From a virus (lineage: Duplodnaviria; Heunggongvirae; Uroviricota; Caudoviricetes), in IMG/VR virus record IMGVR_UViG_2731957842_000007, positions 1 through 18,628 of that record: a DNA stretch of 18,628 nt; one strand, written 5' to 3'. Of this stretch, positions 2,420 to 15,128 are shown piece after piece. Within the stretch, counting starts at the first letter, position 1. Each line of letters opens with the position of its first letter. Made by a program: the position numbers and the translations under genes. Under the pieces are notes generated by a model. That model searched no databases. It was not told the origin of the DNA and was given only the letters and a program-made list of their open reading frames with translations.

Positions 2420-4414
2420 TTATTCAGCCTTAGCAAAAGTGGTCATAGTTGTTCCACTGAAAGTGAATGACCTGTCTGTAAGAGTAACATCCTGAATAGC
2501 AAAGTAATCGCCAACACCAGCGCCATTTACATAAAACTCGAATATCTCAGATGTATTTTCCGGAATAATATTATTAGCAATATAACACGTAGATAAAGAA
2601 CCATTTGTTGATGGTAAAGTTCCAAATAGCGTTGCATCCGATGCAGCATATATCGAACTGCTTAAATAAATATTTATATCAACATTACTCTCATAAGTAA
2701 CAATTAAGTACACCCGGTCGTTAACCTTCCACCCTCTGTCTTTTATCTTAGTATTAAGTGATAGCTTGTTAGAACTAGGGGTCGTTACGGTATTAATGGT
2801 TATTTTTGCTCCTATTGAGTTGTATCTGCTTCTGGTTACTGTATTACCAGTATTGTTCATTGTATAAAGGATTGCTCTGCTTTCTGCAAACGTCCTCATA
2901 TTAATCTTGCCTAAACAATCTCCTTCCATAACTTGTGGGCCAGACACAGTTGCACCAATATAACAATTAGTAAATACAGCATGAGCCCTGTTGTCAGTGC
3001 TTGATGCAAGTAATGAAAGTTTAAAGTTGCCCTGATCTGCAATCCAGCAACTATCAACCTTAACTACAGCATCATTGTCAAGAACAACAAACCTTCCTCC
3101 CTCATTGTAATATCCTACAAAAGCATTTACACCGCTTATTTTTACTACTCCATCTGGAACCGTAAAGATATCGCCTTGTATCGCTTCGCCATAGTACCCG
3201 CCAACAATATTGGTCACTCTGGTATTTAAGTACATGCCATGCCCAATGCCGAACTCAAGGTCACATCCAATTAAGCTTAAACCTTCAATAGGGGAAGTAC
3301 CAGAAGCATAAAAGGCATATTCACCGACCTTATTTGATGCAAATCCACAGTTATTGAACGTTACGCGGTTGTTAGCCCCAGCAAGGTGAACTCCGCGATT
3401 TGGCGCAGGAACAAAAGAACAGCAATCATAGGTATTAAGCCAGTCGTTTATAGTATAGAAGTTCGCCACCACGCCATTGATGAAACGACAATTATGGGTT
3501 CTTCCTAGGTGAACATATTGAATTCGGCAAGCATAGTTGGCGATGTTGTTCCCATCAACTGTAACGTGAGAGATAGATGTGCTACGTCTTATAGAGTCAG
3601 TTTCGTAGTACATGTTGACAACTGTCTCTCCAGTGAACCCACTCCCCGCAATAATGAATGACTTCTCAACGCCATCCCCGAATAGGTCAACAGTGCCTAT
3701 TGTTAAATCAACTGGTGACTTAACATAGTAAGTTCCTGCAGGGACAAACAGCCTCTTTCCTGCCGATAAAGCAACTGCTGCAGCAGCATTAAAGCTAGCT
3801 GAGTTATCTGCCGCTGGATCACCAGTAATGGGGAAAAATTGAGCAACAGAAATATAATCTGCTACCGTCACTTCGTACCATGGCAAAGCAGGAGATGACG
3901 GAAGAGTGCCACTACCACCGGTGTAGATTTTATTATTATACCACCACCAGTTATCAACATTAGATAACACCCCCTCCTGCCACACCCCCCCTAACGAGAA
4001 ATCAAGACCGTAAGAAGTAGCTATCTGACTTAATGATAATGTTGCTCCTCTGTCAGAAGCTAATTCTTGCCTTAATTGGTCAGGGTCATACTTCAGCACA
4101 TTAGGAAAATAGAACTGCTGTGCACCATACGCATCATAAACAGCCATAGAATGGCCTTGCACAGTTACGAACTTGGCAATCTGTCCGTTATATACCGGAT
4201 ATCCAGCAGCGTTAATGATGATTGGTTGCGAAACAGGAACGTGAGAGCCGTCTTCGTTCTCCACATAAACCTGAATCTGGTTTTCAGGATTTACAGGGTC
4301 AGTGTCAATTTTACCGATATAAATTTTGCCATTGGCTACGGCTTTAAAAGAACGAGCCATAGTGAAGAGTTGCGAAGGCATGCTTACCACAACATTTGCG
4401 GTGATATCTGACAT
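2420..4414 (-). CDS. Tailspike protein: P22-like N-terminal head-binding domain fused to a divergent C-terminal receptor-binding domain (probable glycan depolymerase)
   Basis: N-terminus [60 protein letters not shown] matches the conserved head-binding domain of P22 gp9-type tailspikes; the remainder has no P22 gp9 similarity I can see. Start placed at ATG 4414 (GGAG 9 nt upstream) rather than the ORF-track start at 4462. Confidence 0.85.
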
Positions 4415-9913: not shown

Positions 9914-10758
9914 TGCTCCGCGATTATCTTGATGGTTGTGGCAGTAAACGCCGCACCATTCGACTGAATGGTTAACGTGCTGCCATTTGTGGCAAGAAAG
10001 CCGTCTTTATCCACGCTGAAGAACGTAGCTAACAAGATGTTATCGGTTGTTGTCGCCGAGTTGCGACTGCTTACCAGTGTGTCAGGAACAGAGCCGGAAA
10101 AGGTTAGCTGCATTGACCTGTTTGCGGTTCCGCTGGGCCACGTCCCGACAATCGACAGCTTGAAGAACAGGGTTTTGTTCTCGTTGAACACAACCATCTT
10201 GTTGTTAACGGTGTCGAAGAATGGTGCCAACGAGCCGGATGACGGCGTGAGCGTTTTCAGCAGGCTAACAAGGTTGGTCGGCGCTGTCGGGATGGTTACT
10301 GATACGCCAGAGTAAACAACCTCTGACTTCTTGCGTGTGGTTGCATACTCCAGAGCATCAATGCGCGTTTCATGGTCTGAAACCTGCGACTCCAGCGACT
10401 GAAGTCTGGTATCAAGCGACGCAATATCGCTTTCATTCTGAGTGATTCGTGTTTCATGTTCCTGAAGAGTTGATTCTGCCTGACTGATTCGCTCCTCATG
10501 ATTAACAAGCGTTGCTTCCGCAGCAGAAATTCGCTGCTCATGGTCAGCGAGAATCACATCCTGCTCATCGTTCCTGACTTGTGCGTCATAAGCGCCCTGT
10601 CCGGCCTCGTTGGCCTTGTTAGCCACGTTACCAACATCAGTGCCCTGTGCGATAACGTAAAGCAGATACGACTGCGAGAAGATATTGCGTGGAAGGACTG
10701 ATGTGTCGAGCCGTGTAGCCTGAATGATTACCGGCACATTGAGATTCGAATCCGCCAT
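9910..10758 (-). CDS. Tail needle protein, P22 gp26-like, with a divergent C-terminal knob domain, 282 aa
   Basis: N-terminus [43 protein letters not shown] matches the conserved gp26 N-terminal domain; central heptad-like repeats ([43 protein letters not shown]) fit the trimeric coiled-coil needle; C-terminal 120 aa differ from P22. Confidence 0.8.
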
Positions 10759-11552
10759 TACTCAATCCTTATCTGAGCGCCAGACAGAGTGACAGGTGAC
10801 TTCGTGATAACGCGCAATTTGAAACCAATGTTTTTCCTGATGCGCCCTACTTTCTTCCACAAAACGCGTTTGTCGTAAACGAACGGTTCATTCTGCTCAA
10901 TCATCTGCTCACGCCCGTAATTGATGCCGTCAGTGGTTGCAGAGAGGAACAGGCGGTCGGCGTACTGAGCTACGCCAGTGGATGATTCCACCTCCAGATC
11001 GAAGCATCTGGCGTTATCCGCTTTGAACAGTGGAGTAAACAGCAGGTGTTCCTGTTGCTTGTCGTACTGGCTGCTGATATCGAACTGCAATTTCCCGGTC
11101 ACGGACTCCAGCTTATCGCCGCACGTTATCTGATTGCCTTCATAAATGAAGTCGATAGCGCGGTACACATCGTCATACAGGCCTGTTTTCAACACACACC
11201 ATTGCGGACCATTGGCGCTTGAAGATGCGTCGTACACGAGGACGTGGCGCGGAAGGTGGATAATCAGCAGTTCATGCGCATCAAATCGCAGCGATTCCAT
11301 CACACCATCAGCCAGTTCATCAGCAGTGTAGGAGCGAAGAATTTTCTCAATGCTCGCGCTGGCGATTGGTGATACCTGACCTGATCCGATGATGTATACA
11401 GACGGCGCACCCGTTGCCGGATTGCTGATAAACGCATACGAATCAGCGAATGGCGTTTTGCAGTAAGTTCCGGCAATGCCTTTCTGCACCATCAGCGATG
11501 GTTGTGCGACATACAAAGCGGCACCATCGGAGGTCAACATGACAGTAGTCAT
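10758..11552 (-). pseudogene. 5'-truncated gp10-like tail accessory gene (C-terminal 264 codons only), at the deletion junction
   Basis: Occupies the gp10 position upstream of gp26; P22 gp10 is about 470 aa but this ORF is 264 aa. The codon immediately upstream of its ATG (11553-11555 on the minus strand) is TAA, and its first codons are antisense to the start of the N-like gene. Confidence 0.6.
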
Positions 11553-11838
11553 TACATATCTGGCTGACGATAACGCCAGAAATCGCCGCAGAGCACGCAG
11601 ACAGGCTCAACGTGAACAGGCAATGCAAGAGCAGCGACTGGCGCGAAAAATTGCGCTAAAGCTCTCTGGTTGCGTCAGAGCAGATAAAGCAGCATCACTC
11701 GGAAGCCTTCGCTGCAAGAAGGCAGAAGAAGTCGAGCGTAAACAGAATCGTATTTACTACCGCAAGCCACGCAGTGAAATGGGTGTGACTTGCTCAGGCC
11801 GCCAGAAAATGAAATTAGGCAGCAAACCACTTATTTGA
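11539..11838 (+). CDS. N-like transcription antiterminator with an arginine-rich motif, 99 aa
   Basis: MTVVITYLADDNARNRRRARRQAQREQ resembles the N-terminal arginine-rich RNA-binding motifs of lambda N and P22 gp24 (which begins MTVITY). GGAGG 5 nt upstream of ATG 11539; first gene of the rightward operon. ORF-track start 11476 rejected. Confidence 0.55.
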   Translation: MTVVITYLADDNARNRRRARRQAQREQAMQEQRLARKIALKLSGCVRADKAASLGSLRCKKAEEVERKQNRIYYRKPRSEMGVTCSGRQKMKLGSKPLI

Positions 11839-11846
11839 GGTGAGAT

Positions 11847-12317
11847 ATGACAAAATCATGGAGCGTACCTTTTCCTGAATCAGAAACTGAACATGATGGA
11901 ATGCCTGTTTTCTGGAGATTCCAGGCGACAGTTGAAGAAGATGGGATAAAAATATTCGCACTTCAATATATAGCTTTTCATCAGACAGAGCATTATGCAT
12001 GGTTGGTTCCTGCGCATTGGATTGTTAATTTTAAACCAGCACCAAATCAGTGGTTACAGGAATGGAAACAAAGGAGAAATAGATATGCAATTAAGAAAGT
12101 AGCAAAAAATGCAGAAAGATCTTTTGCATTCCCAACGAAGAAACTTGCCATTGAGAGTTTATTGCGCCGGAAGAAATACCATTTAATGAGAATCAAACAA
12201 GATTTGGCTGTTGTATCAACTCTTGTTGATGGGATGAAGAATATTGATACATCAACACCAGATATTGAATATAACTTTGGACACAACCAAGAAACAGAAA
12301 ATTGGGTATTCTACTAG
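11847..12317 (+). CDS. Hypothetical protein, 156 aa, in a visibly A+T-rich segment; moron candidate
   Basis: RBS GAGGTGAG before ATG 11847; Trp- and Lys-rich soluble protein with no family I recognise; followed immediately by a terminator. Confidence 0.6.
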   Translation: MTKSWSVPFPESETEHDGMPVFWRFQATVEEDGIKIFALQYIAFHQTEHYAWLVPAHWIVNFKPAPNQWLQEWKQRRNRYAIKKVAKNAERSFAFPTKKLAIESLLRRKKYHLMRIKQDLAVVSTLVDGMKNIDTSTPDIEYNFGHNQETENWVFY

Positions 12318-12341
12318 GCCGCATAGTCGGCCTTTATTTTT
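12317..12341 (+). terminator. Rho-independent terminator after the 156 aa ORF
   Basis: Stem GGCCG (12317-12321), loop CATAGT, stem CGGCC (12328-12332), followed by TTTATTTTT. Confidence 0.6.
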
Positions 12342-12363
12342 GGCATAAACAACAGAGGCTAAC

Positions 12364-12660
12364 ATGGAATTTAAAGGTACTGAAGGTAAGTGGGAAATAA
12401 TGATGGATGGCGATGAGATTAAAATCATCCAGGCAGACTCACTTGAAAATGGCGCAGGCTGGCGTTCGTATATTGCAATCTGTGAGGAAGTTCAATGTAT
12501 TGAAGATGCCAATCTAATAGCGGCAGCACCTGACCTTCTCGAAGCACTTCAGTTATTACTTAAGCAATCCAAAAATAGAACAACGACAACATATCCAGAA
12601 TGGTATGGAGCTGTTAATAAAGGTCTTGCAGCAATCAGCAAGGCTCTGGGAGGTGAATGA
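12364..12660 (+). CDS. Hypothetical protein, 98 aa
   Basis: ORF with an AGAGG RBS-like element upstream; its stop overlaps the start of the next ORF (ATGA), indicating translational coupling. Confidence 0.5.
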   Translation: MEFKGTEGKWEIMMDGDEIKIIQADSLENGAGWRSYIAICEEVQCIEDANLIAAAPDLLEALQLLLKQSKNRTTTTYPEWYGAVNKGLAAISKALGGE

Positions 12661-12869
12661 TGTGCGAGTTTTATGAAGCAGATATCAAACGCCCAGAAAT
12701 GGCAAGTGATGCGACATTACGTGATTACTTCGCTGCTAAGGCTATGGCAGCAATAGTGCGCAGATGGGACGGACATTCCTTTGGCGGTGGACAGAATTCA
12801 CCACAGTACAAAGAATTAGCAGATGATGCCTACTTTATTGCTGATGCCATGCTCAAAGCTCGCGAATAA
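12657..12869 (+). CDS. Hypothetical protein, 70 aa, translationally coupled to the upstream 98 aa ORF
   Basis: ATGA start/stop overlap at 12657-12660; no recognisable family. Confidence 0.45.
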   Translation: MMCEFYEADIKRPEMASDATLRDYFAAKAMAAIVRRWDGHSFGGGQNSPQYKELADDAYFIADAMLKARE

Positions 12870-12964
12870 GCACTGTGTATTCATTCCAACGAGTGAATAC
12901 ACGGAGCAATGTCGCTCGTAACTAAACAGGAGCCGACTTGTTCTGATTATTGGAAATCTTCTTT

Positions 12965-12992
12965 GCCCTCCAGTGTGAGGGCAATTTTTTTT
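12965..12992 (+). terminator. Rho-independent terminator upstream of the coiled-coil gene
   Basis: Stem GCCCTC (12965-12970), loop CAGTGT, stem GAGGGC (12977-12982), followed by AATTTTTTTTT. Confidence 0.55.
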
Positions 12993-13004
12993 GATGGAGG
13001 ATAT

Positions 13005-13973
13005 ATGAGTGAAGTAACAGATTTAGTTGTTATTGAAAAAGCAAATGCAATGACTGTATTTCAGTCTGCCGACCAGATTGAAGAAATCCTTCAAAAGGTA
13101 GAACGTGAAGTTATGTCCTTTGTGCCTGATATCACAACGGCAAAGGGCAGAAAGGAGGTCGCTTCTCTGGCGTATAAAGTTGCGCAGACGAAAACATATC
13201 TCGATGGTCTTGGCAAAGACCTTGTTGCTGAACTGAAGGAAATTCCAAAGCTAATTGATGCCAACCGCAAGACAGTGCGCGATCGCCTTGATGAACTGAA
13301 AGCCAAGGCACGCCAGCCTCTTACTGATTATGAAGAGGAACAGGCGCGGATTAAAGCTGAAGAAGAAGCTAAGGCAGCAGCTGAAGCTCTCGCAAAGCAA
13401 ATTGAGTCTGACCATGAAATAGCGATTTTGATGGATCGCGAATTTGACCGCCAAAGAGAAGAGGCAAGACTCAAAGCGGAGCAGGAAAAGCGAGAGCATG
13501 AAGAACGCTTAAAAAGAGAAGCTGAAGAGAAAGCCAGAGCTGAAGCCGAAGCAAAGGCAAAAGCCGAAATTGAAGCAGCAGCAAGGCGAGAAGCAGAAGC
13601 TAAGGCCGCAGCGGAACGTGCAGAGCGTGAACGCATTGAAGCCGAGCAACGAGCACAGCGCGAAGCAAAAGAGGCAGCAGAACGAGCTGAAAGAGAAAAG
13701 CAGGCAGCAATTGAAGCAGAACGCAGAAAAGCACAGGAGGAGGCTGAACGAATCCGTCGCGAGGTTGAAGCAAAAGAGCAAGCCAGAATAGCAGAAGAAA
13801 AAAGAATCAAGGAAGAAGAAGAGCGTAGAGCAAAGGATAAAGCTCACCGGAAAGAAGTAAATAACAAAATACTTGCTGACCTTATCAAGGTTGGTGCATC
13901 AGAAGATGTTGCTAAAAATATCATAACAGCCATCGTAAAAGGCGAAGTATTCGCAACAAAAATAACCTACTAA
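13005..13973 (+). CDS. Hypothetical coiled-coil protein with a long Glu/Ala/Lys/Arg-rich repetitive central region, 322 aa
   Basis: ATG 13005 preceded by GGAGG; the ORF-track start 12909 lies upstream of the terminator and is rejected. Central 200 aa are AEAKA/EAERR-type repeats; globular N- and C-terminal segments. Confidence 0.6.
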   Translation: MSEVTDLVVIEKANAMTVFQSADQIEEILQKVEREVMSFVPDITTAKGRKEVASLAYKVAQTKTYLDGLGKDLVAELKEIPKLIDANRKTVRDRLDELKAKARQPLTDYEEEQARIKAEEEAKAAAEALAKQIESDHEIAILMDREFDRQREEARLKAEQEKREHEERLKREAEEKARAEAEAKAKAEIEAAARREAEAKAAAERAERERIEAEQRAQREAKEAAERAEREKQAAIEAERRKAQEEAERIRREVEAKEQARIAEEKRIKEEEERRAKDKAHRKEVNNKILADLIKVGASEDVAKNIITAIVKGEVFATKITY

Positions 13974-13997
13974 TAAAACCAACATAAGGAACCACCC

Positions 13998-14129
13998 ATG
14001 ATTTACGCAATCGCGGGAGGAGCTCGCATGGGTGCCTTCCAACTAAATGAATCTTTACTTGAACGAATCACCCGTAAATTACGTGACGGATGGAAAAGAG
14101 TTGAGGTCTTATTATGCGCAATGAAATAG
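13998..14129 (+). CDS. cIII-like small protein (FtsH protease inhibitor family), 43 aa
   Basis: MIYAIAGG...ESLLERITRKLRDGWKR matches the conserved core of lambda CIII as I recall it; AAGGA RBS upstream; located upstream of erf as in lambdoid PL operons. Confidence 0.5.
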   Translation: MIYAIAGGARMGAFQLNESLLERITRKLRDGWKRVEVLLCAMK

Positions 14130-14266
14130 CCATCAATCACCAGATGCTTCGTGCTGCACAGAACAAAGCAGTAATAGCCAGATTTATTGGTGATTCAAAA
14201 ATGTGGCTTGAAGCAAATAAAGCGATGAAATCAGCTATCAACCTTCCGTGGTATCGCAGGAAATGA
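14114..14266 (+). CDS. Kil-like small protein (putative), 50 aa
   Basis: IARFIGDSKMWLEANKAMK resembles the lambda Kil family from memory; start overlaps the cIII-like ORF, and its stop overlaps the next start. Confidence 0.35.
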   Translation: MRNEIAINHQMLRAAQNKAVIARFIGDSKMWLEANKAMKSAINLPWYRRK

Positions 14267-14421
14267 GTTTCACAGATAACTGGTCAGACGAAGAATTCAT
14301 TCGTCAGATGAAAGAATTAATCGGTAACGAAGGAGATATTCATGTCACTTGCAACCACAGTGAAGGAGAGCAAGTTACAGAGACGCATGTACACGCAGAA
14401 AGCTCTCTGGTATCGCCATAA
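14263..14421 (+). CDS. Hypothetical small protein, 52 aa
   Basis: Chained by ATGA overlap to the upstream small ORF and lying directly upstream of erf; no family recognised. Confidence 0.3.
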   Translation: MSFTDNWSDEEFIRQMKELIGNEGDIHVTCNHSEGEQVTETHVHAESSLVSP

Positions 14422-14522
14422 TGGTGACCGCGAAGGAATGCGGGTATGCCTTAATTTGTCCCGAGTCGAAGTATTAAATCAGCGTTATTTCCTTGGGCCG
14501 TGTCCATTCTGAGAACAATCAT

Positions 14523-15128
14523 ATGAGCAAAGAATTTTACGCAAGACTGGCAGCTATTCAGGAGAATCTGAACGCGCCAAAGAATCAGTACAACTCATTC
14601 GGCAAATATAAATACAGAAGCTGCGAAGATATTCTTGAAGGCGTTAAGCCGTTACTGAATGGTCTGTTTTTATCAATCAGCGATGAAGTTGTGTTGATTG
14701 GTGATCGGTATTACGTGAAAGCCACGGCAACTATTACCGATGGCGAAAACAGTCATACGGCAACTGCTCTTGCACGAGAGGAAGAAAGCAAGAAAGGAAT
14801 GGATTCTGCACAAGTTACTGGAGCTACAAGCTCTTATGCGCGCAAGTATTGCCTCAATGGTTTGTTCGGCATTGATGATGCGAAAGATGCAGATACCGAC
14901 GAACATAAACATCAGCAGAACGCAGCAGCAAAGCAATCAAAACCATCACCTACACCTGAACAGGTTCTAAAAGCATTCACTGACGCAGCAATGCAAAAAA
15001 ACACCGTGGAAGAGCTTAAACAGGCGTTCGCCAAAGCGTGGAAGATGCTCGAAGGAACACCGGAGCAGCACAAAGCGCAGGACGTTTACAACATCAGACG
15101 AGACGAATTAGAAGGAGCTGCTGCTTAA
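14523..15128 (+). CDS. erf: Erf-family single-strand annealing recombinase, 201 aa
   Basis: MSKEFYARLAAIQENLNAPKNQYNSFGKYKYRSCEDILEGVKPLLNGLFLSISDEVVLIGDRYYVKATATITDGENSHTA matches P22 Erf as I recall it. ORF-track TTG start at 14493 rejected in favour of ATG 14523. Confidence 0.85.
   Translation: MSKEFYARLAAIQENLNAPKNQYNSFGKYKYRSCEDILEGVKPLLNGLFLSISDEVVLIGDRYYVKATATITDGENSHTATALAREEESKKGMDSAQVTGATSSYARKYCLNGLFGIDDAKDADTDEHKHQQNAAAKQSKPSPTPEQVLKAFTDAAMQKNTVEELKQAFAKAWKMLEGTPEQHKAQDVYNIRRDELEGAAA

Follow-up and report, generated by a model that had tools for sequence, protein, structure and literature searches.

Organization of the N-to-cIII interval

The 18,628-nucleotide window analysed here carries, between an N antiterminator gene and cIII, three small open reading frames on the + strand: ORF A (11847–12317, 156 aa), ORF B (12364–12660, 98 aa) and ORF C (12657–12869, 70 aa). 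An earlier note, made from the letters of the window, had placed three ORFs here, and it is borne out. The cluster is followed by a hairpin (12875–12902), by a segment that resembles PreS, a small RNA of phage lambda, and has an intrinsic terminator at its end, and by a gene for a coiled-coil 'TolA-like' protein; cIII, Kil, Erf and Abc2 are found downstream.

The N gene (11539–11838, + strand, 99 aa; phrog_271, E = 6.8e-37, with a weak match to Pfam N_peptide) matches the DNA of CUS-3 N at 96% identity across its entire length and looks complete, but it is without pL and nutL. The prophage is a remnant at argW. Homology to E. coli prophages, which runs through the late gene gp10 on the − strand, stops at 11534, and homology to the CUS-3 N region begins at 11525, 14 nt before the N ATG; the deletion junction (11525–11534, unstranded) thus joins a truncated gp10 gene, whose ORF covers just positions 212–469 of the 469-position Pfam Phage_stabilise profile, to N. 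Because this fusion removed pL and nutL, the early-left operon is probably silent in this window, and the cluster is probably the cargo of a decaying prophage.

At the other end, the 'TolA-like' gene (13005–13973, + strand, 322 aa) has a GGAGG Shine–Dalgarno sequence ahead of its ATG at 13005, and 969-nt genes are annotated for it in Bas106 and mEp043. A 354-aa ORF called from 12909 is an artefact that reads through the small RNA, the true start being 13005. A small ORF at 12909 (MSLVTKQ...) was also rejected as coding: the Salmonella versions have ATA in place of its ATG, and this stretch is small RNA.

ORF A, a widespread gene next to N

ORF A starts 8 nt past the N stop codon and matches phrog_1636 over residues 1–156 of 156 (E = 2.7e-112). 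Its protein is 100% identical to L0079 of 933W and to its counterparts in many Stx phages, and 99.4% identical to gp45 of HK97, so that in sequence it is no different from these; against 933W there are no nonsynonymous changes (pS 0.044). Beside N, it occurs in 593 of 5426 complete E. coli genomes (11%) and in most Stx phages. With a GC content of 0.365, against 0.497 for N and 0.46 for the whole early-left region, ORF A, which had been noted as lying in an A+T-rich segment, is the most A+T-rich gene in the window. The composition shift then read across the cluster holds for ORF A and not for ORFs B (0.418) and C (0.455), neither of which is compositionally unusual.

A three-stranded sheet comes first, then a conserved, strongly basic segment (KKVAK..ERSFAFP.K..A.ESLLRRKKYH) that runs into a long helix. 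When the ORF A alignment was used in a deep HMM search, it gathered a remote superfamily of proteins of ~130–155 aa with 100 representatives, and Pfam and PHROGs scans of 57 of these returned no annotation. The AF2 model of ORF A (pLDDT 67, moderate) had no fold match in the PDB or BFVD, which at this pLDDT is weak evidence, and in the literature searched no paper on L0079 or HK97 gp45, on their function or otherwise, was found.

In the window, in 933W and in Bas106, ORF A lies directly after N and ahead of the first terminator; it is absent from lambda, P22, CUS-3 and mEp043. In Pectobacterium it sits at the far end of the operon, adjoining xis and int. Since a terminator follows ORF A immediately, transcription would stop there without N, and ORF A could be immediate-early, with a regulatory role of its own. 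In Stx phages and HK97 it could be an undescribed immediate-early effector made with N before antitermination.

ORFs B and C, a coupled pair of exchangeable members

ORF B very likely belongs to the XkdD/Y8K6 family (Pfam PF27050, Phage_P22_Y8K6; P22 orf78; phrog_1273), to judge from three kinds of sequence evidence: homologues at 60–98% identity carry a precomputed PF27050 match, PGAP labels DNA 100% identical to ORF B as 'XkdD/Y8K6 family', and ORF B is 46.5% identical to ST104 orf18, whose record describes it as similar to P22 orf78. The family is internally mosaic, with conserved anchors and exchanged modules, and has an invariant helical-hairpin core, LIAAAPDLLEALQ ... AAISKALG. ORF B has these anchors in common with P22 orf78 (Y8K6_BPP22) and, like it, lies between ral and gene 17 or cIII in the pL operon, but differs from it in the alleles of its N-terminal beta module and of its inter-helix segment. 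The strictly virulent Klebsiella phage KpS8 (Vequintavirinae) has a full-length family member. The AF2 model of ORF B (pLDDT 72, likewise moderate) gave no informative fold match, again weak evidence, and the literature searched yielded no function study of PF27050 or P22 orf78.

ORF C matches phrog_2201 (E = 1.2e-19) over profile positions 156–215 of 226 only: it carries the conserved C-terminal domain of that family, with the core LRDYFAAKAM...AYxIADAMLKAR, and has a variant N-terminus without the usual GGPAFP motif. Among 427 homologues no Pfam domain was seen except in one fusion to a Lambda_CIII domain. The translational coupling proposed earlier for the 98- and 70-aa pair is upheld by a 4-nt overlap (ATGA, 12657–12660) and by a GGAGGTGA Shine–Dalgarno sequence within the last codons of ORF B. 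Overlapping small genes are common in phage operons and are not specific to toxin–antitoxin pairs.

The two genes recur together, as a B-like and C-like pair, in Bas106, Sf101 and Salmonella prophages, and they also occur apart. In mEp043, and in Salmonella prophages recorded in 355 collection blocks, ORF B has no C beside it, and ORF C is found without B in Enterobacter prophages and one Yersinia phage; 106 E. coli genomes carry this B allele and 8 carry this C allele. The small ORF coupled to B is one of three unrelated kinds, namely C, a 52-aa ORF or a 42-aa ORF.

Selection on the three ORFs and searches for known functions

All three ORFs are conserved across genera, and purifying selection acts on them: in all comparisons with diverged homologues pN falls well short of pS, and dN/dS is 0.1–0.5 where dS is unsaturated, saturation of dS affecting five comparisons. 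The same alleles are carried by the viable phages Bas106, Dewey, HK97 and 933W. Few residues are invariant in any of the three, and a catalytic-type motif is absent.

Whereas the ORFs had been described as unrecognised, each falls in a catalogued family (phrog_1636, very likely PF27050, and phrog_2201, respectively), none of which has an assigned function. HMM and structure checks of the kind that had been proposed returned no defence, toxin or antitoxin match: none of the three ORFs gave an informative hit in Pfam, NCBIfam or PADLOC, the sole match in PADLOC-DB 2.0 being one of ORF A to Cas1_II (E = 0.018, 12 bits), which is noise. The Pfam models for Ral, Abc2 and similar proteins did not match any of the three, and searches of PDB sequences with single sequences and with profiles gave noise only and no solved structure.

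A conserved boundary hairpin and a small RNA flank the B/C cassette

The terminator-like hairpin behind ORF A (12316–12343, + strand) reads AGGCCG-CATAGT-CGGCCT and then TTTATTTTT; its stem-loop (12316–12333) overlaps the A stop codon and is followed by a T-rich tail, beyond which ORF B starts after ~20 nt. Positions 12316–12356 recur with 100% identity in CUS-3 behind another gene, and the hairpin is also found behind ral in Sf101 and, in a weaker form, behind ral in lambda; it is, by these comparisons, a shared boundary sequence. Terminator-like sites in 11000–14600 (6, against 3.9 ± 1.7 in shuffles) are not significantly more numerous than expected, and the two terminators cited earlier are supported by conservation, not by site count.

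The second hairpin (12875–12902, + strand), directly 3' of the C stop codon and directly 5' of the PreS-like segment, is present as had been reported, but with a 12-bp stem and a 4-nt loop rather than a 9-bp stem. Its structure is kept while its sequence is not: three variants retain the stem with both sides of 9 of 12 pairs changed, and pairing holds in 99% of cells in the variants versus 35–46% in slid controls. The surrounding segment, 12866–13010, folds with z = −5.4.

Positions 12870–12984 correspond to lambda 34045–33931, the ral–ea10 spacer, at 114 of 115 positions, the sole mismatch being at 12983. It is between ral and ea10 that lambda LPR1/PreS maps, with its 3' end at tL2a; this RNA is ~88 nt long and processed to ~68 nt, is made in the lytic cycle only, binds Hfq, increases translation of dnaN (the host sliding clamp) and is conserved, according to its authors, at 92% or more (bioRxiv 10.1101/2024.10.31.621285). 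The segment at 12905–12992 (+ strand; its 5' end is inferred from the published length) is identical to lambda 34010–33923 at 86 of 88 positions. This identity of 97.7%, above the authors' 92%, together with the same GC-rich stem and poly-U 3' end and the same early-left location upstream of the gene preceding cIII, marks it as a homologue of the published PreS. Its 3' end is a tL2a homologue (12963–12992, + strand) with an 8-bp stem, a 6-nt loop and then T8. In lambda PreS follows ral directly and precedes ea10/ssb, whereas here it follows the B/C cassette and precedes the 'TolA-like' gene.

The element was found in 2148 of 5426 E. coli genomes, and an Rfam scan of the region identified no family. 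Expression of PreS in this prophage is doubtful because pL is deleted. Of other known small RNAs, AgvB/AsxR (anti-sRNAs) and the Pas group were ruled out, as they map to the late PR'/Q region. An analogy, with no sequence match, is offered by DicF of the Qin prophage dicB operon, which is matured from a transcript of the lambdoid early-left type and ends at an intrinsic terminator; PreS is likewise an operon-embedded small RNA with such an end. A reading of the CGCTCGTAA motif as a boxA-like antitermination site, suggested by resemblance, was set aside.

The flanking terminators of the earlier note are therefore sites that do exist, at 12316–12333 and 12963–12984, but the hairpin and the second terminator belong to the PreS/tL2a element: the stretch read as flanking terminators is a small RNA gene, and the 354-aa ORF call crosses it.

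A hypervariable slot in the early-left operon

The hotspot character ascribed to the N-to-cIII interval is supported by the loci compared, in which this hypervariable slot holds ral, sieB, an HNH endonuclease, a pentapeptide-repeat protein, DUF7666 or ssb/ea10, as well as A, B and C in varying combinations. CUS-3 and lambda join 12316–12356 straight to 12870 onward, and mEp043 has 12317–12662 and 12904 onward in common with the window and another gene after B. Alignment thus shows B/C as a cassette inserted between the first terminator and the PreS element, which are contiguous in lambda and CUS-3.

Moron status, which had been suggested from composition, terminators and position, is not supported. 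A sigma-70 consensus scan, which weak or non-canonical sites within upstream genes could escape, picked up 3 sites in 3.6 kb where 5.4 are expected, with no promoter ahead of A, B or C, and the 8-nt gap between N and A, the ~20-nt gap between the terminator tail and B, and the B/C overlap leave no room for one. One site with 9 of 12 matches lies within ORF C, at 12788–12816. In every locus examined, across genera, the three genes share the strand of N, cIII, kil and erf and are collinear with them. Morons (Juhala et al. 2000; for example HK97 gp15 and lambda lom/bor) resemble the cluster in foreign composition, which applies to A only (0.365 against 0.46 for the operon; B and C are not distinct), in a terminator after the gene, and in presence or absence between otherwise similar phages. 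Terminators do follow A and the B/C cassette with its small RNA, but both also occur in phages without these genes. Morons, moreover, have their own promoter, whereas A, B and C appear to be in-line genes of a repressor-controlled early operon, so that expression from a repressed prophage is not expected.

Interpretation of the cluster

The interval is probably an ordinary mosaic of the N-dependent pL operon of a P22-like lambdoid prophage, with A, B and C as host-directed early proteins, a reading that we hold with modest confidence. It is built from modules that can be exchanged separately and that meet at short conserved linkers, in the order A with its terminator-like hairpin, B, the coupled C, and the conserved hairpin with PreS ending at tL2a. 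In an intact phage, A, B and C would be made at infection or induction, from pL transcripts carried through the terminators by N, and would be small non-enzymatic proteins that bind targets in the host or in competitors rather than act as a defence expressed in the lysogen. The same slot and operon hold genes with known early host-directed functions (Ral, gene 17, Kil, CIII and Abc2). Lambda Ral, P22 gene 17, Abc2 and Kil provide the favoured functional analogy, being likewise small, non-essential, encoded in the same operon and on the same strand, and exchanged as cassettes, but they resemble A, B and C neither in sequence nor in fold. An anti-defence or host-takeover role is our preferred guess.

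Position alone cannot separate anti-defence from defence, since in P22-like phages the slot also holds sieB, a lysogen-expressed exclusion gene. That at least one of A, B and C is a defence made in the lysogen, by superinfection exclusion or abortive infection in the manner of sieB or rex, would suit this hotspot position, the foreign composition of A with a terminator behind it, and the persistence of intact A, B and C alleles within a prophage remnant, although intact ORFs in a remnant fit a recent deletion as well as they fit selection. Defence, which the earlier note had named beside anti-defence as most likely at this place, is argued against by PADLOC matches that do not rise above noise, by the genes' alignment with a repressed pL operon and the lack of promoter fits or matches upstream, and by the occurrence of the B family in the virulent phage KpS8; PreS, which that transcript includes, is reported from lambda as a product of the lytic cycle alone (bioRxiv 10.1101/2024.10.31.621285). 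We regard lysogen defence as distinctly unlikely. Still less can be said for B and C as a small toxin–antitoxin-like or abortive-infection pair, as had also been proposed: their small size, 4-nt overlap, translational coupling and recurrence as a pair would fit, but each occurs without the other, their allele counts in E. coli genomes are unequal (106 and 8), B is coupled to one or another of three small proteins that are unrelated, and neither B nor C matches a toxin, antitoxin or DNA-binding family in Pfam, NCBIfam or PADLOC. This reading is very improbable.

For ORF A, the place directly after N and ahead of the first terminator, and the basic segment running from a sheet into a long helix, would also suit a nucleic-acid-binding regulator of phage early development, housekeeping in type, immediate-early with N and not directed at the host. 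ORF A is dispensable, however, given that lambda, P22, CUS-3 and mEp043 do without it, it lies beside xis and int in Pectobacterium, and no DNA- or RNA-binding family or fold was matched; such a role is accordingly unlikely. That the ORFs are non-functional remnants or chance reading frames could be argued from the defective state of the prophage and its lost pL, yet their conservation across genera, the selection values given above and the same alleles in Bas106, Dewey, HK97 and 933W make this extremely improbable.

Within the preferred reading of host-directed early genes, a more specific and rather speculative version, to which we give a low probability, is that the invariant core of B, its swappable modules and the interchangeable coupled ORF together form a modular two-protein counter-defence or host-takeover device. 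The variable parts would then set target specificity in an arms race. The idea of A as an undescribed immediate-early effector is a separate one, of equally low probability.

As a discovery the cluster matters little, since its components are already known from public phage genomes, family catalogues and a published small RNA; its use is in correcting the flanking-terminator reading and the 354-aa ORF call. Two leads follow from it. One is ORF A (933W L0079/HK97 gp45), widespread beside N; the other is the XkdD/Y8K6 family, present in temperate and virulent phages and unusual in the way it combines conserved anchors with swapped modules. Tractable phages such as HK97, Bas106 and mEp043 make both inexpensive to follow up.

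A cluster of three genes and an sRNA gene between N and cIII

The interval 11847-12992, between N and cIII, had been described in an earlier note as an unrecognised, moron-like cluster and a candidate for defence or anti-defence functions. The underlying observation is sound and the cluster is an ordinary one: its components are already known, as uncharacterised database families together with one characterised sRNA. ORFs A (11847-12317, 156 aa), B (12364-12660, 98 aa) and C (12657-12869, 70 aa), all on the plus strand, are present exactly as described, and B and C are coupled by an ATGA overlap, the final codons of B supplying a GGAGGTGA ribosome-binding site. For each of the three, pN lies far below pS in all comparisons with diverged homologues (from Salmonella, Cronobacter, Pectobacterium, Yersinia, Enterobacter and one Klebsiella phage), with dN/dS of 0.1-0.5 in those comparisons in which dS was not saturated, and A differs from its 933W counterpart only synonymously. 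A, B and C are thus all real genes, and since all three already stand in databases, in uncharacterised families, ‘unrecognised’ does not describe them.

The reported A+T-rich segment corresponds to A (GC 0.365, the lowest of the window's genes) and does not extend to B (0.418) or C (0.455), which resemble the operon (0.46). A terminator scan picked up the terminator after A (12316-12343; AGGCCG/CGGCCT followed by TTTATTTTT). Searches of A, B and C against PADLOC, NCBIfam and solved structures (by sequence) gave no matches; the defining features of a known defence system were looked for and not found.

A and B belong to widespread uncharacterised families

The A protein is a full-length member of phrog_1636, 100% identical to L0079 of 933W and to the product of the same gene in dozens of Stx1/Stx2 phages, and 99.4% identical to HK97 gp45; at the DNA level, the gene is carried by 593 of 5426 complete E. 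coli genomes, in up to four copies per genome. Searched as a profile against 1.8 billion representatives, A proved to belong to a wider superfamily of proteins of ~130-155 aa that have in common a beta-hairpin motif and a basic helix (KR.xK..SRFA..TKE.A...L..RK..Q..HLKR); of the 57 superfamily representatives scanned, none belonged to any Pfam family or to a PHROG with an annotation. The AlphaFold model of A (pLDDT 67) combines a three-stranded sheet with several short helices and one long helix (residues 98-131). In a Pectobacterium odoriferum locus (L019), a 63% identical homologue (3501-3977) does not adjoin N but occupies the distal end of the operon, directly ahead of xis and int.

B very likely belongs to Pfam PF27050 (‘Phage_P22_Y8K6’), an assignment based on close homologues and conserved motifs rather than on B's own model score; a newer PGAP label is ‘XkdD/Y8K6 family phage-associated protein’. 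This family includes the uncharacterised 8.6-kDa P22 orf78 protein, encoded between ral and gene 17. Its anchors (FKGTxGxW, (E/D)A.LIAAAPDLLEALQ and AAISKALGxE) are invariant, and the segments between them are exchanged as modules. The model of B combines a low-confidence beta meander with a confident helical hairpin, and a fold search with it returned generic helical hairpins as sole matches. The virulent Vequintavirinae phage KpS8 also has a full-length family member, gp030. In this rV5-like Klebsiella phage (locus L021), gp030 (1504-1761) has nucleotide-metabolism genes as neighbours (NrdA-like, PnuC-like and NMN adenylyltransferase).

Pairing of B and C is recurrent but not obligate

C has the C-terminal domain that is conserved in phrog_2201 (LRDYFAAKAM...AYxIADAMLKAR) and, at its N-terminus, lacks the GGPAFP motif of most relatives. 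Adjacent B and C genes are found again in Bas106 (B 41% identical, C identical), Sf101 and Salmonella prophages. B occurs without C in mEp043 and many Salmonella prophages, and C without B in Enterobacter prophages and one Yersinia phage; the window's B allele is present in 106 E. coli genomes, versus 8 for its C allele. The pairing is therefore recurrent, not obligate. Each of the seven lambdoid loci inspected has a small ORF whose translation is coupled to the 3' end of B; across these loci the ORF takes three unrelated forms, namely C, a 52-aa protein (mEp043) and a 42-aa ORF (ST104, Salmonella). These unrelated partners and the non-obligate pairing argue against the toxin-antitoxin-like pair suggested earlier, for which neither co-inheritance nor family homology was found, and leave open a looser arrangement of B with a variable partner. 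The unrelated small ORFs of P22-like Salmonella phages and mEp043 overlap the stop codon of the B homologue as C does (L004, 2279-2407; L007, 4294-4422; L003, 2297-2455) and encode 42 aa (MMEINKEQ...) or 52 aa; the 42-aa ORF is unannotated in ST104.

The region after C encodes a homologue of the lambda sRNA PreS

Alignment across E. coli and Salmonella phages identifies the region after C as a conserved element. The hairpin at 12875-12902 exists, with a stem of 12 bp rather than the 9 bp claimed, and occurs in three unrelated sequence versions that each retain the 12-bp stem: 9 of the 12 pairs differ in both partners, and the paired fraction of cells is 99%, versus 35-46% when partner columns were slid as a control. 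The hairpin may serve in RNA processing or stability. The version is independent of the upstream gene, ST104 and the Salmonella locus L007 having the same 42-aa ORF and different hairpins. The following ~90 nt are nearly invariant up to the second terminator (12963-12992; 8-bp stem, then T8), also picked up by the terminator scan, and the hairpin/PreS element is present in 2148 of 5426 E. coli genomes, lambda lysogens among them.

Positions 12870-12984 match the lambda ral-ea10 spacer (34045-33931) at 114 of 115 positions, the sole mismatch (12983) affecting the final base pair of the terminator stem. An Hfq-dependent sRNA, LPR1, renamed PreS, has been mapped to this spacer; it is ~88 nt long, is processed to ~68 nt, has its 3' end at the early-left terminator tL2a, is confined to the lytic cycle, raises dnaN translation and represses alaS, and deleting it cuts the plaque yield from spontaneous induction two- to four-fold (10.1101/2024.10.31.621285; 2024 preprint). 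Given the spacer match and the published map, the hairpin and second terminator are not mere flanks of the cluster, but a processing-site-like hairpin and the PreS gene (12905-12992, plus strand). Counting 88 nt back from the T-run would put the 5' end near 12905, which is also a mosaic joint in mEp043, ST104 and Salmonella.

A 354-aa ORF from 12909 was rejected, as its ATG lies inside the PreS homologue and the ORF runs through the sRNA; this ATG is ATA in Salmonella versions, and the true start of the coiled-coil gene (13005-13973, 322 aa) is 13005. A 32-aa ORF annotated in Bas106 uses the same ATG. The coiled-coil protein has no Pfam match; elsewhere it is annotated ‘TolA’ or ‘cell envelope biogenesis protein’, and a phage HF4s record calls it similar to phi80 Agt (‘Gam antitoxin’).

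Likely expression pattern in intact phages and in the remnant

A promoter of its own, the defining feature of a moron, was not found in the cluster: a sigma-70 consensus scan detected none upstream of A, B or C, and there is no room for any. The sole plus-strand promoter-like site of the cluster (12788-12816; TGGACA, 17-nt spacer, AAGAAT; 9/12 matches) lies inside C, directed at the hairpin and PreS, and is probably due to chance, since 3 sites were found in the 3.6 kb scanned versus 5.4 expected. All homologues examined are early-left operon genes in the same orientation, and together with the lack of promoters this makes transcription from pL, the early-left promoter, the most likely mode of expression; N would most likely carry pL transcripts through the terminators during infection or induction, and A, since it precedes the first terminator, could already be transcribed ahead of antitermination. 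Considering the known functions of this operon (Ral, gene 17, Kil, CIII, Abc2 and PreS), the occurrence of the B family in a virulent phage and the absence of an enzyme-like conservation pattern from A, B and C, we infer that these would be small binding proteins acting on host or competitor targets in lytic growth; an anti-defence or host-takeover role is plausible.

The window itself is part of an E. coli chromosome and lies at the argW (KplE1/CPS-53) integration site; in it, yfdC (1-933), tRNA-Arg(CCT) (1009-1083) and intS (1209-2402) are followed by P22-like late genes on the minus strand (tailspike, DNA-transfer/ejection proteins, tail needle and gp10) and then by the plus-strand early-left operon (N, A/B/C, cIII, kil, erf, abc2 and ead/Ea22). 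The gp10 gene (10758-11552, minus strand) is truncated, lacking its first ~211 codons, and its ORF matches the Pfam model (469 positions) at 212-469 only. Homology to other prophages on the gp10 side stops at 11534, and homology to the CUS-3 N region runs from 11525 onward, 14 nt ahead of the N start codon. The truncation and these limits show that a single deletion took out the remaining head genes together with the lysis, replication and immunity regions, pL and nutL, and joined gp10' to a complete, promoterless N gene (11539-11838), leaving a prophage remnant. The junction (11525-11534) contains a possible 10-nt homology overlap between the two sides. Because pL and nutL are lost, expression of A, B and C from the window's own prophage is unlikely.

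The first terminator-like segment (12316-12356) runs almost directly into the hairpin and PreS in lambda and CUS-3; in the window, a 513-nt B/C cassette separates them. The module boundaries, at 11849 (the end of the N module, just past the ATG of the next gene), 12316 and 12356, ~12628 to 12662, and 12870 and 12904, are short shared linkers, as is usual for lambdoid mosaics.
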